DNA of 64,000 nt from Promethearchaeota archaeon (GTDB lineage Archaea > Asgardarchaeota > Thorarchaeia > Thorarchaeales > Thorarchaeaceae): NCBI GenBank assembly GCA_014728035.1, contig WJMJ01000071.1:1-64000 (forward strand), read 5' to 3'. The stretch's first letter is position 1, and each line of letters starts with the position of its first letter. This document shows, in pieces, positions 52,752-57,681 of the stretch. Under the pieces are notes generated by a model. That model was not told the origin of the DNA. It ran no database searches and was given only the letters and a program-made list of their open reading frames with translations. Both the position numbers and the translations under genes were made by a program.

Positions 52752-54083
52752 TTATTTGAGTTTGTGTTTTTCTATAAACTCCGCAAGAACATCTTCCAGG
52801 TCTGGTTTTCCTATTTCTTGAAGGTTATACTTTACTCGCACACTTGGAGTTTTTATTTTGATAAGTTTAGCAAGATCTATTGGAGTACCAATCACAATAG
52901 CGTCTACATCTGCTTCATTGATAGTATTCTCAAGATCTTTCATCTGTTCCTTTCCATAACCCATTGCAGGTAGAACATCTTCTAGGTGATCGTATTTCTG
53001 GAAAGTTTCAATAATGCTGCCTTTTGCATAAGGCCGTGGGTCTACGATAATTGCTCCAGCTTTTCTAGCAGCTATATACCCAGCTCCATAAGGCATATCC
53101 CCATGAGTTACTGTTGGACCATCTTCAACCACAATTACTCTTTTACCTTTGATTTTAGAAATGTCCTCTATGACCAAAGGTGATGCTGCATCAATAATGA
53201 TTGCTTCCGGATTAACCTCCATGACATTTTCGCGAACTTCTTCCACATTCTCGTAATCTGCAGTTTCGACTTTATTGATGATTACAACATCCGCCATACG
53301 TAGATTTGTTTCTCCAGGATAATATGATATTTCATGACCTGGTCTGTGTGGATCTACAAGCACAATAAGAAGATCGGGTTTGTAGAATGGAAAGTCATTG
53401 TTTCCACCATCCCACGTAATGACATCTGCTTCTTCTTCTGCTTGTTCCAGTATCTTTCCATAGTCGACTCCCGCATAAAGGATTACTCCCATGTTTATCA
53501 TGGGTTCATACTCTTCTCGTTCTTCAATGGTACAATTGTATCTGTCCATGTCCTCTAGTTTTTCATATCTTTGAGCTATCTGTGTTGTAAGGTCAGGATC
53601 GTAGGGCATTGGATGTCTGATATTTACTGGCTTGACTCCCATATCCACCAAAATTTGATTTACTCGTCGAGAAGTCTGACTTTTTCCACAACCCGTTCTG
53701 ACAGCACAAACTGCAACAACTGGTTTCTTGCTTTCGATCATAGTGGTTTTGGTTCCCATTAATCTTATGTCAGCACCCAGTGAGTTAACCCATGCAATCT
53801 TTTCTCCAACTGTATCATACGGTAAGTCTGAATACGCCAGAATGCATTGTTCAACTTCGAATTTCTCAATTAGTTCTGGAAGATTTTCTTCTGGATAGAT
53901 CTTTATTCCCTCCGGATAGAGCTTACCTGAAAGCTCAGGAGGATACATTCTATCTTCTATTCCAGGAATCTGCTCAGCGGTGAACGCAACCACTTCATAA
54001 TCTTCATTGTCCCTGAAGAAAACATTGAAGTTGTGAAAGTCACGTCCGGCTGCACCCATTATGATTACTTTTTTCCTGCTCAT
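52752..54083 (-). CDS. COG2403 / cDPG-synthetase-like P-loop enzyme, probable arginine synthetase (ArcE-type)
   Basis: MGAAGRDFHNFN, AVRTGCGKSQ, RHPMPY, TIEEREEYE, WDGGNNDFPF, VEDGPT; start trimmed to ATG 54083. Confidence 0.8.
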   Translation of the reverse strand: MSRKKVIIMGAAGRDFHNFNVFFRDNEDYEVVAFTAEQIPGIEDRMYPPELSGKLYPEGIKIYPEENLPELIEKFEVEQCILAYSDLPYDTVGEKIAWVNSLGADIRLMGTKTTMIESKKPVVAVCAVRTGCGKSQTSRRVNQILVDMGVKPVNIRHPMPYDPDLTTQIAQRYEKLEDMDRYNCTIEEREEYEPMINMGVILYAGVDYGKILEQAEEEADVITWDGGNNDFPFYKPDLLIVLVDPHRPGHEISYYPGETNLRMADVVIINKVETADYENVEEVRENVMEVNPEAIIIDAASPLVIEDISKIKGKRVIVVEDGPTVTHGDMPYGAGYIAARKAGAIIVDPRPYAKGSIIETFQKYDHLEDVLPAMGYGKEQMKDLENTINEADVDAIVIGTPIDLAKLIKIKTPSVRVKYNLQEIGKPDLEDVLAEFIEKHKLK

Positions 54084-54361
54084 TCTTAGCGCCGCCTTCG
54101 AACAAGTATGAGTCTTGCCCCTCGTGGGTACGTTATGAAATTGTCGGTCACACCAATTACGCAATTTCCCTGATTTTGCCTTCGAAACTCAAAATTTAAC
54201 TCCAAAAAATCGATAATCATTCCGATTAATCTTATTTTGGATAAATTTTAAGAATGTTCGAAAAATCGCAGTTACAATACAAACACTCATATAGCTCCGG
54301 TGAGTGTTTAACTGGAAAGGTGCATTGTGGAATACCTCTTGCACAAATCCGGGGTGCAATA

Positions 54362-54913
54362 GTGAAATTAGTTGATTTAGCAGCTGAAGCAGTTAAAGTC
54401 TTGAAAGAATATGGAGAAGAAGGTATCAGAAGTGATATTCTTGCAGAACAACTTCGGACTCCGAAACGACGAGTATATGATGTTCTTGCTGTGCTGCGAG
54501 CTTTGAAATTAGTAAAGACAAATCGTAGATTTAATGGTACTACCGTTACGTGGGTAGATCCTATCAAAGATTTTGTACAACGCAATGAATATGAAGATAT
54601 CAAATCACAATTAGATGAAGAACGCCAATCCCGGAAAGATTTGCAGGTTCAAGTTGCCGAGCTGAAGGAGCAAATCCGAATCACAAAAAGCAAACTTCGT
54701 CGTGATACACCCTCCATTGAGGTATCTGAAAAAACAGAATTCAATACGACTCAACTAAGAATTCGGTCTCTTTCATCAAGTGGATTTGCTAGTGTGAAAG
54801 ATTCTGGGATGGAGGTCTACATTGAAACGCATGAACCAGGAATGGTTGTAGACCCAACTGTTAGTAAGAAAGATGAACACGAAGCTTTACTTCGGAGTCT
54901 TCAAAGAATATAA
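54362..54913 (+). CDS. E2F/DP-like winged-helix transcription factor (wH + coiled coil + C-terminal beta-rich domain)
   Basis: LAEQLRTPKRRVYDVLAVLRALKLV...VTW; coiled coil follows; GTG 54362 after GGGGTG SD. Confidence 0.72.
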   Translation: MKLVDLAAEAVKVLKEYGEEGIRSDILAEQLRTPKRRVYDVLAVLRALKLVKTNRRFNGTTVTWVDPIKDFVQRNEYEDIKSQLDEERQSRKDLQVQVAELKEQIRITKSKLRRDTPSIEVSEKTEFNTTQLRIRSLSSSGFASVKDSGMEVYIETHEPGMVVDPTVSKKDEHEALLRSLQRI

Positions 54914-54921
54914 AAATAGAA

Positions 54922-55314
54922 TCACACCGTTTTCTTTATTGTGATTCTACTTCCTCTTTTAATGGATTTTATTTCTTCCAAGAGTGATTCTTCCGATGTA
55001 ATTCGACCCAAAATATTCACAGGACTAAAAGTTTTCATATCTTTTAGGTAAATACATAGAGAATCTCCTAGAGGCATATATGCGATATCTCCTTTCTTAA
55101 CTTCTTTAACAGGTTTGATGTTTCCCTTTGATATTCCCAAAGTAATCTTTAGTTCACCTCGCATAACAGCACCTCTCCCAGTGAGTGGCAACCTTACCTT
55201 GATTTCTTCTACAATAAGGGGTGCTAGAACCCGGTCCAGTGTTCCTTCAAGTGATAAACCATTTTCAAATTCAAATACTATTTTTAAGTCACTCTCGCTC
55301 ATGATACTCACCAT
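54922..55314 (-). CDS. cyclophilin-like fold protein (TM1367/UPF0310-like)
   Basis: LAPLIVEEI..LP, VKKGDIAYMPLGDSLCI, PVNILGRI. Confidence 0.8.
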   Translation of the reverse strand: MVSIMSESDLKIVFEFENGLSLEGTLDRVLAPLIVEEIKVRLPLTGRGAVMRGELKITLGISKGNIKPVKEVKKGDIAYMPLGDSLCIYLKDMKTFSPVNILGRITSEESLLEEIKSIKRGSRITIKKTV

Positions 55315-55320
55315 CTAGTA

Positions 55321-56532
55321 GTGTGTTCATCCCTAAAACCTTCTGCTTTCATCAGCAAAGGCTTAATTGGAAACACATCCATTTTTCAATTGGAGTGGAT
55401 CGGGCTGGTTAAGACTCGTTTGGATGTTGCTTTCGTCGTAGATACGACAGGTTCAATGAAAGATGATATTAGCGCTGTAAAGGATAGTTTGTTTGATATC
55501 GTTGACAAAATCGTGAGAAAAACGGAAGATTTGGAATTTCGTTTTGGAATTGTTTCATATAGAGACCATCCACCACAAGACAGGTCTTATGTTACAAAAG
55601 TCTTCGATTTCACAGATGACATCAAAGAAGTTCACAAGAAAATATCAAAGCTAAAACCTTCTGAGGGCGGGGACACACCAGAGGCAGTTGCAGATGGTAT
55701 ACATGATGCTAGAACCAAATTAAGTTGGGGCGTCGATGCGTATAAGGTTCTTCTCTTGGTTGGAGATGCTCCTCCTCACGGAAGTAGATATAATTCACTG
55801 GGTGACGACTATTTTTCTCGTGGATGTCCTGAAGGGTATGATCCCTGCGATGAAGTTATCCAATTGAAAAAGGAATATGGTTCAACAGTCTTTATTTTCG
55901 TAGTTGGATGCAATCCATTGGTAGAAGAATCTTTCAGAACCATCGCAGATTCTGTCGAAGATGGCAAGTATTTTTCACTACATGAAGCAGATGAGCTTCC
56001 GGTGGCAATACTGGAAATTCTTGAAGGTGTTAGTGATCTAATTGAAGCTGACCGTAGAGTATTGACATATTATGAATCCCATGATGGTGTTTTTGACTTA
56101 CCTGAAGCAGCATCAAATATTGGAATGACTTTACGTGAATTAAAGACCTCTCTCTCGCGGCTGATTGAACTAGAACGAATTCCTCGTTGGCCAAAGGGCA
56201 GACCGTTATCTCCCAGTCAAATGGGAATAAAGGTAGACCTTGGAACAGTTCCAGATGCGATAGTTGGAGGAAAACCGTTTAAGTACTCCCTCCGTGTTAT
56301 GAACCCAAGTGCGACGATACTGAGTATTCGGGTTATTGTGTCTCTTGTCACATCAGAAGGTGTATCAGAAGTGACAAATGAACGTCACGATATTAGTCCT
56401 AGATCAGATAACCAGCTTGATCTGAAGCTAATTCCAATGTCTTTCGATGTAGGAAAGGCGAATATCAAAGTTGAAGTTCTCTACGGTTCTAAATCTATTG
56501 CAAGTCAAATCTATTCTACAAGATTGCATTAG
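55321..56532 (+). CDS. vWA domain protein with wHTH and C-terminal Ig-like domain
   Basis: DVAFVVDTTGSM MIDAS, YRDH, GGDTPEAV, LVGDAPPHG; true start probably ~55396-55410. Confidence 0.85.
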   Translation: MCSSLKPSAFISKGLIGNTSIFQLEWIGLVKTRLDVAFVVDTTGSMKDDISAVKDSLFDIVDKIVRKTEDLEFRFGIVSYRDHPPQDRSYVTKVFDFTDDIKEVHKKISKLKPSEGGDTPEAVADGIHDARTKLSWGVDAYKVLLLVGDAPPHGSRYNSLGDDYFSRGCPEGYDPCDEVIQLKKEYGSTVFIFVVGCNPLVEESFRTIADSVEDGKYFSLHEADELPVAILEILEGVSDLIEADRRVLTYYESHDGVFDLPEAASNIGMTLRELKTSLSRLIELERIPRWPKGRPLSPSQMGIKVDLGTVPDAIVGGKPFKYSLRVMNPSATILSIRVIVSLVTSEGVSEVTNERHDISPRSDNQLDLKLIPMSFDVGKANIKVEVLYGSKSIASQIYSTRLH

Positions 56533-56538
56533 TTACTG

Positions 56539-57681
56539 GTGTGTACAATGAATCTGCAAGCTATTATGGGTAGAAATCAACAAGGAATATGCTTTGTTTC
56601 AAAGTCAGTTAGTTTTTCTGATTACGTGACTATATCATCAAAACATCAAATTGTAATATCAGAAATTCGAAAATCAGAAAAAGTTCCTGAAGGGTCAATT
56701 GTGATTGATTCTAGGTTGTGGTTTTCTCTTGATATATCCCAGGATAAACTTGTTTCAGTTAAGAATCACGAAGCTGTACCTAAAATTCATACATTGACAT
56801 TAATAGCTACATCTGTAAATCCTGAAATTCCGCATCATGAAGTCGTTGAAGAGATGCGAAATAGAATTGATGATTTCAAAGATGATCTACATGGGCTTGT
56901 TGTAAGAGTTGGGCAAAAGATTCCTGTTCCACGTGTTGATGTTGAAATTACTATTTCAGAGATTGCACCTATTTCATCTGATGGATACGCACAGATAGAC
57001 TGGGATAATGTGTTCAAATTCGTTATCTCTCCAGGTTCAGTTTGTCCTCCATTTAACTTATCTTGCGTAATAGATTGTGGGGCATCATCACATAAGAAAG
57101 ATATTTTTCAAGTAATCGATGGAGTATCTAATTTGGTCAGTCGATTTGATGCTGTCACTACACTTATTGTCAACCTATTAGAAACCATTCTCATTCAAAA
57201 AGACAGTCATCTTCTTTCTATGATTTGCTTTTCATCTCACCTTGATATAATGCATACGTTTGATTCCATTACAGGAGCTGAAACAGCTGTATCTAGTATT
57301 GAATCTCCCGATATCATTGAAATTGTTAAAGAGTGGTTTTATGAGAAATTGGAAGTACATAGAACTGAGCCATCAAATCCATGTATTGGTCTCGAAAAAG
57401 GGATTGATTTAGCAAAAATTCAACACAAAATGAATAATCATCCCACAATTGTTCTATTCTTTTCTAGTGGGTCTTATTCTGAAGGTCGAAATCCGGTTTT
57501 TTGTTCACAAACAAATCATAATAGAATTTCTGTTTGCACTATTGGAATTGGTGAACATGCTGACCAAGAGTTATTACAGGGAATTGCTGAATCTGGAAAA
57601 GGGGTTCATCAAGATTATGTGAATCTTGAACAAATACCCAAAATAATTTCGAAAATTAAAGAGTTCATTTCAGGTATATAG
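56539..57681 (+). CDS. CDC48/NSF N-domain-like + degenerate vWA protein
   Basis: EIRKSEKVPEGSIVIDSRLWFSLDI..VSV; LHGLVVRVGQKI..VEITISEIAP; then FNLSCVIDCGASS...IVLFFSSG...TIGIG..LLQGIA. Confidence 0.65.
   Translation: MCTMNLQAIMGRNQQGICFVSKSVSFSDYVTISSKHQIVISEIRKSEKVPEGSIVIDSRLWFSLDISQDKLVSVKNHEAVPKIHTLTLIATSVNPEIPHHEVVEEMRNRIDDFKDDLHGLVVRVGQKIPVPRVDVEITISEIAPISSDGYAQIDWDNVFKFVISPGSVCPPFNLSCVIDCGASSHKKDIFQVIDGVSNLVSRFDAVTTLIVNLLETILIQKDSHLLSMICFSSHLDIMHTFDSITGAETAVSSIESPDIIEIVKEWFYEKLEVHRTEPSNPCIGLEKGIDLAKIQHKMNNHPTIVLFFSSGSYSEGRNPVFCSQTNHNRISVCTIGIGEHADQELLQGIAESGKGVHQDYVNLEQIPKIISKIKEFISGI

Follow-up and report, generated by a model that had tools for sequence, protein, structure and literature searches.

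An E2F/DP-type winged-helix protein encoded in a Thorarchaeal genome: domain organization, predicted self-pairing and candidate target sites

The gene and its E2F/DP-type winged helix

The window analysed here, a stretch of 64,000 nucleotides (positions 1 to 64,000 of contig WJMJ01000071.1, assembly GCA_014728035.1) from an archaeon of the family Thorarchaeaceae, contains an E2F-like gene whose product comprises (i) an N-terminal winged helix of the E2F/DP type carrying the RRxYD base-contact motif, (ii) a heptad-repeat helix predicted to form a homodimeric coiled coil, and (iii) a small C-terminal β domain followed by a terminal helix (Table 1). The computation shows the winged helix to be homologous to the E2F DNA-binding domain, with the base-contact motif kept, and the place of the protein in the E2F/DP winged-helix family, judged from its sequence, is secure. 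The product is probably a sequence-specific transcription factor, a predicted homodimer with thyA as a putative target in Thorarchaeaceae, and a member of the Asgard E2F/DP-homologue family already described (arCOG02749; Eme et al. 2023); family and core idea are thus published, and the window adds no new family.

The domain assignment relies on several profile comparisons. The Pfam family PF02319 (E2F_TDP) matches residues 11-64 with 33.6 bits, above its curated gathering threshold of 25.7, whereas TrmB (PF01978) reaches 15.0 bits, below its own cut-off of 25.6, and all 30 of the 30 Thorarchaeal homologues aligned pass E2F_TDP. An earlier, sequence-only reading of this DNA had described the winged helix as E2F/DP-type, had proposed a profile check against E2F_TDP and had named a better score to TrmB-like proteins as a refutation; the score above threshold, the failure of TrmB to score better and an hhalign probability (Prob) of 99% to E2F bear that description out. 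Within the motif, R36, R37 and D40 are invariant and Y39 is conserved in at least 90% of 60 Asgard sequences, with identity down to about 21%, and RRVYD lines up with the RRIYD of E2F8 and E2F4; such conservation, as read from the alignment, is no chance likeness.

A search of 1.84 billion representative proteins with the family profile retrieved 60 clusters at E ≤ 1e-3, none of them TrmB-family proteins, and the distant non-Asgard matches that were checked carry E2F_TDP in 20 of 20 cases, most of them together with E2F_CC-MB or with a second E2F_TDP domain, as in E2F7/8. Searched against the PDB, the same profile finds E2F8 (4yo2, E 1.6e-6) and E2F4 (1cf7_A, E 0.015) and, at E ≤ 10, no DP chain, though the E2F4 chain of 1cf7 was matched; likewise, no Pfam DP-family match was obtained in 30 full-length sequences or in 60 C-domain sequences. 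When profiles built from 16 diverse Asgard sequences and from 10 eukaryotic E2Fs are aligned by hhalign, the match spans 107 columns at Prob 98.9 (E 3e-17); restricted to the winged helix, it reaches Prob 99.2 (E 3e-19). Whole-model fold searches (Foldseek against the PDB and VIA-align against ~48,000 representative chains) return generic winged helices over residues 1-72, with TtgV, Zalpha and MepR ranked at the top, as is to be expected of so common a fold.

GTG 54362 is the likely start of the gene, since homologues are mostly 180-183 residues long (182 homologues found) and the conserved 'WGA/RGA' residues seen in over-extended open reading frame calls are accounted for by the Shine-Dalgarno-like GGGGTG box; in related loci, G-rich boxes of the GGGGTG/GAGG type precede the starts in most cases. 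A longer in-frame alternative from ATG 54254 (219 residues) was rejected as an over-extension in view of the same homologue lengths and of the box that precedes GTG 54362. The protein quoted in the sequence-only reading matches the translation of 54362-54913 exactly over its 183 residues, and the KRRVYD placed at 54464-54481 was verified in the translation. The genome (4.33 Mb, 98% complete, 39.5% G+C, contamination estimate 8.5%) holds a single E2F_TDP gene, scoring 35.2 bits in a whole-genome scan, in agreement with the one E2F/DP-type gene that had been proposed.

Table 1. Features of the E2F-like gene, its product and the adjoining genes (window positions)
Feature	Position	Strand	Basis or remark
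E2F-like gene	54362..54913	+	183 codons + stop, GTG start; uninterrupted translation
Shine-Dalgarno-like GGGGTG box	54351..54356	+	5 nt upstream of GTG start; read directly
E2F/DP-type winged-helix DNA-binding domain, residues 1-65	54362..54556	+	Pfam PF02319; hhalign Prob 99.2; predicted local distance difference test (pLDDT) 85-93
RRVYD (R36-D40), E2F/DP base-contact motif in recognition helix	54467..54481	+	alignment of 60 Asgard sequences
Heptad-repeat helix, residues 74-115, predicted parallel in-register homodimeric coiled coil	54581..54706	+	AlphaFold2 (AF2) pLDDT 81-97; complex prediction; hhalign
β domain, residues 124-165, pattern F..T..L.IR......I..V...G.EV.IE...PG..V.P	54731..54856	+	conserved in long and short forms; four strands in AF2 model
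C-terminal helix, residues 172-182, DEHEALLRSLQR	54875..54907	+	AF2 helix; specific to the Thor clade
Cyclophilin-like gene (PF04126)	54922..55314	-	Pfam E 7.6e-12; tail-to-tail with the E2F-like gene, 8-nt gap
Divergent upstream P-loop gene (CobW/HypB/UreG-type match)	52752..54083	-	Pfam cobW, 24 bits

Predicted coiled coil and C-terminal β domain

The AF2 model obtained with a 60-sequence alignment has a mean pLDDT of 85 and displays, after the winged helix, one single helix (residues 74-115) and a floppy linker (residues 115-122); with a shallower alignment, the tail drops under pLDDT 50. Hydrophobic residues occupy the a/d positions of a heptad pattern (Y77, I80, L84, L94, V98, L101, I105 and L112), and the 42-residue helix so predicted corresponds to the coiled coil of ~40 residues that the earlier reading had placed after the DNA-binding domain. 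The prediction of two copies of residues 66-183 scored 0.45, compared with 0.00 for the best of 3 controls. In calibration, 20 of 30 proteins with a solved structure of two copies of one chain attained this mark, as did 1 of 23 whose solved structure is a single chain. The runs share at least 49% of their contacts, with a partner pLDDT of at least 51, and the predicted self contacts 84:84, 94:94 and 101:101 describe a parallel arrangement, in register over residues 69-112. With the controls passed, the modelling supports but does not show a homodimeric coiled coil at residues 74-115, and, together with the single gene copy in the genome, it sides with the homodimer foreseen from the sequence. 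As applied to the long form of the family, the published view that these proteins are devoid of a dimerization domain looks, on these models, too strong.

The full-length hhalign alignment extends through the predicted coiled coil, which lines up with the E2F coiled coil and is spaced from the winged helix as it is in E2F. Both a homologue of the E2F zipper and an analogous zipper at the same place would be compatible with this alignment.

The β domain is predicted to contain four strands, at residues 133-136, 142-147, 152-156 and 161-164 (pLDDT 71-90), ahead of the terminal helix. This helix is absent from the Hel-, Loki-, Odin/Baldr- and Jord-type relatives and confined to the Thor clade; the likeness noted earlier between its DEHEALLRSL and the DDIEVLKRM of DP therefore concerns an element that only this clade possesses, and does not hold as a family trait. 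The β domain itself is a separate module, kept in relatives that have no coiled coil, and may provide a second pairing surface, bind a partner or bind a ligand.

Homology of this domain to the E2F/DP marked box, as claimed in the sequence-only reading, is not established. Compared by hhalign with the E2F marked box, the β domain gives Prob 0.1; coiled coil and β domain together give Prob 18.5 against CC-MB, contributed by the coiled coil only. Pfam E2F_CC-MB (PF16421) or DP was matched at E ≤ 10 in 0 of 60 β domains and likewise in none of 30 full-length sequences, and profile searches of the PDB returned no CC-MB chain at E ≤ 10. Searched alone, the β domain falls into no Pfam family, and its best PDB sequence matches, an SH3-like domain (E 0.25) and the KH region of an archaeal CPSF (E 0.47), are not significant. 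In the atlas, only residues 1-96 match a eukaryotic E2F cluster, and a feature search there with residues 66-183 as query brought nothing usable; the structure-search lists are all filled by the winged helix (residues 1-72) and hence say nothing on the β domain.

Candidate sites upstream of thyA and other genes

The 554 kb of intergenic DNA of the genome hold 66 SGCGCS cores. The sequence TTGGCGCG has an intergenic density only 2.5-fold that in coding DNA (8 of 25 occurrences intergenic). Its reverse complement, CGCGCCAA, at contig 44, 2597-2604, precedes the thyA of the genome (thymidylate synthase, PF00303) by 96 nt. In 26 of 30 Thorarchaeal loci, a TTTSGCGCS-type site stands 90-175 nt ahead of thyA. 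Between -250 and -50, the 30 Thorarchaeaceae thyA loci contain 26 SGCGCS cores, mostly TTTGGCGCG(G/A)A, at a density of 4.36 per kb as against 0.24 per kb elsewhere in these loci. The consensus of the thyA site, (A/T)TT(G/C)GCGC(G/C)(A/G)A(A/T), is quasi-palindromic, with perfect TTTGGCGCGAAA and TTTCGCGCGAAA sites in two genomes, and the site is kept while its flanks, position and orientation drift. Comparative sequence evidence shows the thyA element to be genuine and conserved among Thorarchaeaceae, with a sequence that agrees with the consensus to be expected for the present protein. Specifically, it is a match to the consensus DNA site of E2F1-6. In animals, the gene of thymidylate synthase ranks among the classical targets of E2F.

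A second conserved box, CTAGAATAGG, which may be the core promoter of thyA, follows the thyA site at a distance of about 50-60 nt; a location upstream of the likely core promoter would suit an activator-type position. Many Thorarchaeal thyA promoters have the CTAGAATAGG box in common, some 45-65 nt ahead of the start. A further element, TCTAGTGAA(G/A)GATACCAA....ATGAAACA, is shared by one genus group and stands about 25 nt upstream of the thyA site.

Of 30 loci of a MutS-like gene (MutS_V + HHH_5), 17 show a core in the 300 nt ahead of the gene, in 11 cases near -145. Its product comprises 740 residues with MutS domain V and a helix-hairpin-helix (HhH) motif, and is encoded in the present genome on contig 25 (82761). 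In 6 other Thorarchaeal loci, a different core, CATGGCGCG, is found near -60 of this gene.

A ribonucleotide reductase gene with a site at -246 belongs to a class present in only 2 of 60 relatives. This gene, of 1151 codons (contig 161, 1921-5373, minus strand), has close relatives in 2 of 60 genomes of the family, and may have arrived by transfer or be contamination, the contamination estimate of the genome being 8.5%.

The promoter of the E2F-like gene itself has no E2F-type site in the Thorarchaeal genomes. In Odin/Baldr-type (family f15) and f21 genomes, E2F-type cores lie 123-130 nt or 221 nt upstream of the E2F-like gene, with a TTGGCGCC site at 123-130 nt in the Odin/Baldr-type loci and one perfect ATTGGCGCCAAT among the sites of the two families; as far as these sequences go, this suggests autoregulation in Odin/Baldr-type and f21 genomes. 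In family f9, in which no E2F gene was found, 0 of 20 thyA-like genes are preceded by an E2F-type site, and the DNA of this family is also poorer in G+C.

Family comparison, interpretation and gene neighbourhood

PF02319 is present in 124 of the 301 Asgard genomes searched, mostly in one copy, and in 68 of 76 genomes of the protein's own family, and was found in none of the genomes of families f9 (68 genomes), f5 (28) and f22 (21). The named relatives belong to Hel-, Loki-, Odin-, Baldr-, Jord- and Ranarchaeia. Three architectures are distinguished, including (i) a long form, to which the present protein belongs, with winged helix, coiled coil and β domain; (ii) a short form of 114-133 residues, in which the winged helix is joined straight to the same β domain without a coiled coil; and (iii) a third E2F_TDP form of 147-161 residues with an unrelated C-terminal part, one example of which starts identically to a Hermodarchaeia entry in the table of Eme et al. 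Since the short forms keep the β domain without the coiled coil, it is the β domain that constantly accompanies the winged helix, the coiled coil being an optional element. Short forms occur in families f14, f25 and f26 and as a second copy in f16. The third, Hermodarchaeia type is found in families f3, f12 and f21, with conserved WGANAVS..V.L.. or NETWQ.MM.RD.KRN motifs, and genomes of f21 have both this form and the long form. In a winged-helix tree of 75 columns, unrooted and without DP, 14 of 15 eukaryotic sequences fall into one clade outside the Asgard sequences, with a Shimodaira-Hasegawa-like approximate likelihood ratio test (SH-aLRT) support of 98, a placement that argues against recent transfer from eukaryotes.

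Compared with the eukaryotic families, the protein resembles E2F1-6 (E2F_TDP + E2F_CC-MB) in having an RRxYD winged helix and, about 10-20 residues beyond it, a predicted coiled coil, but differs from them in that a marked box is undetectable and 183 residues leave no room for a transactivation or pocket-protein-binding tail. DP1/DP2 likewise have an RRxYD winged helix and a broadly similar layout, whereas neither the profile search of the PDB nor Pfam connects it with DP, as stated above. Unlike the E2F/DP heterodimer, which is built from paralogues, it has one gene per genome and no DP partner gene. The atypical E2F7/E2F8 (tandem E2F_TDP, no DP partner), which include its best sequence match among solved structures (E2F8, 4yo2), would be alike in dispensing with DP and in presenting two E2F-type winged helices; in E2F7/8 both reside in one chain, whereas here they would come together through the predicted homodimer. 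The TrmB family is comparable in its order of winged helix, long dimerizing helix and C-terminal domain and is a secondary Pfam match, but its score stays below the Pfam cut-off and the family profile retrieves no TrmB proteins.

Asgard E2F/DP homologues were put forward as the source of the eukaryotic family by Eme et al. 2023 (Nature 618:992, Suppl. 4.1.5), who reported that the base-contact residues are conserved, predicted similar DNA motifs, proposed that the eukaryotic family arose from duplications of an inherited Asgard gene with domain fusions, and considered the dimerization domain to be lacking in the Asgard homologues. The occurrence of E2F homologues in Asgard genomes was repeated in a 2024 review (PMC7617429), and the NCBI name of the relatives is already 'E2F family transcription factor'. 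The pre-duplication E2F/DP ancestor in Asgard archaea suggested in the sequence-only reading is the published reading of Eme et al. 2023, and so already known. The present protein is a member of the family they describe, with the same PF02319 and the same base-contact residues, Thorarchaeota being covered there. In comparison with that account, the present analysis describes a heptad-patterned helix, a predicted coiled coil that lines up with the one in E2F, a conserved β domain and a predicted homodimer, and adds candidate target sites and a conserved neighbour.

In the mechanism favoured here, two copies would pair through the parallel coiled coil, and this pairing would bring the two winged helices onto a quasi-palindromic E2F-type site, TT(G/C)GCGC(G/C)(A/G)A, of the TTTGGCGCGGAA type. 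One target in Thorarchaeaceae would be the thyA promoter, where the site would take an activator-type position upstream of the likely core promoter, and the MutS-like gene would be a second, weaker candidate, both proposed from comparative genomics. Several observations weigh against this mechanism. The GCGC-core hexamers are not enriched in intergenic DNA genome-wide, and no GCGC core is found in the promoters of MCM, the three Cdc6/Orc1 genes and PCNA of the genome, contrary to the earlier expectation of such sites at replication genes. In E2F-positive families outside the Thor clade, 0 of 10 thyA-like genes are preceded by a site, and one Thorarchaeal genome, G093 (91% complete), has the thyA site and no detected E2F gene. 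The compared genomes are kin, so that the counts of loci with sites overstate their independence, and the link of the thyA site to the E2F-like protein is drawn by analogy, from likeness to the eukaryotic E2F consensus only. As for the pairing module, the β domain reaches a pLDDT of only about 52 in the two-copy prediction, and the coiled coil alone is weakly alike to that of E2F (hhalign Prob 18-34, reversed control 3).

Among the alternatives, it is possible, though less likely than not, that the TTTSGCGCS element before thyA, while genuine, is recognized by a different factor or serves as a structural or promoter element, with the E2F-like protein acting on other targets. The thyA-like promoters without a site in other E2F-positive Asgard families and the site in G093 would fit this explanation, as would the other conserved elements (CTAGAATAGG, TCTAGTGAA..ACCAA) that stand beside the thyA site in several genera; on the other hand, the element fits the consensus of the very family whose base-contact residues the protein keeps, it is retained despite drifting flanks, position and orientation, and it is quasi-palindromic, as expected for a homodimer. 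A reading that goes further than the mechanism favoured here, in which a self-pairing Asgard E2F reads TTTSGCGCS-type palindromes as a homodimer and controls genes for DNA precursors and DNA repair (thyA and the MutS-like gene), its coiled coil and β tail being the forerunner of the eukaryotic pairing module that the published account regards as missing, is unlikely; if it were true, the link of E2F to nucleotide metabolism would predate eukaryotes. Equally doubtful is a complete miniature E2F/DP, in which coiled coil and β domain would be a true homologue of the coiled-coil/marked-box module. The domain order is that of E2F/DP, the coiled coil begins at the E2F distance from the winged helix and aligns in register, four strands follow it, as the Pfam E2F_CC-MB region of the aligned E2Fs suggests, a homodimer is predicted (score 0.45, best control 0.00), and the best local match, itself non-significant, pairs the last hairpins of both domains (EV.IE..PG..V versus YQI.LKS..GPI). 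Set against this are the marked-box probability of 0.1, the combined value of 18.5 that stems from the coiled coil alone, the 0 of 60 β domains matching PF16421 or DP at E ≤ 10, the lack of any CC-MB chain in the PDB profile searches and the confinement of the atlas match to residues 1-96; moreover, the domain is small (about 45 residues) and present without the coiled coil in the short forms, and the DP-like terminal helix is seen only in the Thor clade.

Two further explanations concern the identity and the ancestry of the winged helix. Acquisition of the Asgard E2F-like genes from eukaryotes by horizontal transfer, instead of ancestral descent, might be read from their patchy spread (124 of 301 genomes, none found in f9, f5 and f22), but is highly improbable given their presence in many deeply divergent Asgard classes at 21-34% identity, the conserved archaeal neighbour gene, the single well-supported clade of eukaryotic E2Fs outside the Asgard sequences and the Asgard proteins' being without marked-box or pocket-protein-binding parts. 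It is scarcely credible that the protein is an ordinary archaeal regulator of the TrmB/MarR type whose RVYD helix resembles E2F by convergence, and this reading is already largely refuted: TrmB remains under its cut-off while E2F_TDP exceeds its own, the 60 library-wide matches contain eukaryotic E2Fs and no TrmB-family proteins, and hhalign to E2F reaches 99%. The points in its favour are that TrmB is a secondary Pfam match in 23 of 30 members, that TrmB-family proteins also have a winged helix and then a long helix, with TrmBL2 in the Foldseek list, and that generic winged helices (TtgV, Zalpha, MepR) lead the fold-search rankings; however, true eukaryotic E2Fs give secondary TrmB matches too, so that these matches reflect the kinship of the TrmB and E2F families.

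E2F/DP is the driver of the G1/S transcription programme in eukaryotes, and where it came from is relevant to the emergence of the eukaryotic cell cycle. If confirmed at the bench, the coiled coil would be a pairing tail that the literature calls missing, and the textbook E2F site before the thymidylate synthase gene of Thorarchaeaceae would offer a concrete probe and target for the first archaeal E2F biochemistry; to these would be added, if confirmed, a cyclophilin-like neighbour kept across Asgard classes.

The convergent arrangement of this cyclophilin-like gene and the long-form E2F-like gene recurs in 22 of 24 related loci with a match, from at least eight Asgard families (f1, f2, f6, f8, f15, f16, f19 and f21). 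In families with two PF04126 genes, the more divergent copy adjoins the E2F-like gene. PF04126 is also present in 47 of the 68 genomes of the E2F-negative family f9, so that its co-occurrence with E2F is not strict. Conservation of a tail-to-tail gene pair across classes is uncommon, and may point to a link in function or in regulation at the 3' end.

On the upstream side, the P-loop gene adjoins the E2F-like gene in 6 Thorarchaeal loci and in no other family. Beyond the cyclophilin-like gene, two adjacent von Willebrand factor A (VWA) genes, of 403 and 380 residues, occupy 55321-57681 on the plus strand; the first is kept at this place in Thorarchaeal relatives, and VWA genes are neighbours within the Thor clade only. 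Elsewhere in the genome, the MCM gene is a 1214-codon open frame (contig 9, 162530-166171, minus strand) that may contain an intein, since its Pfam match is split into two pieces.

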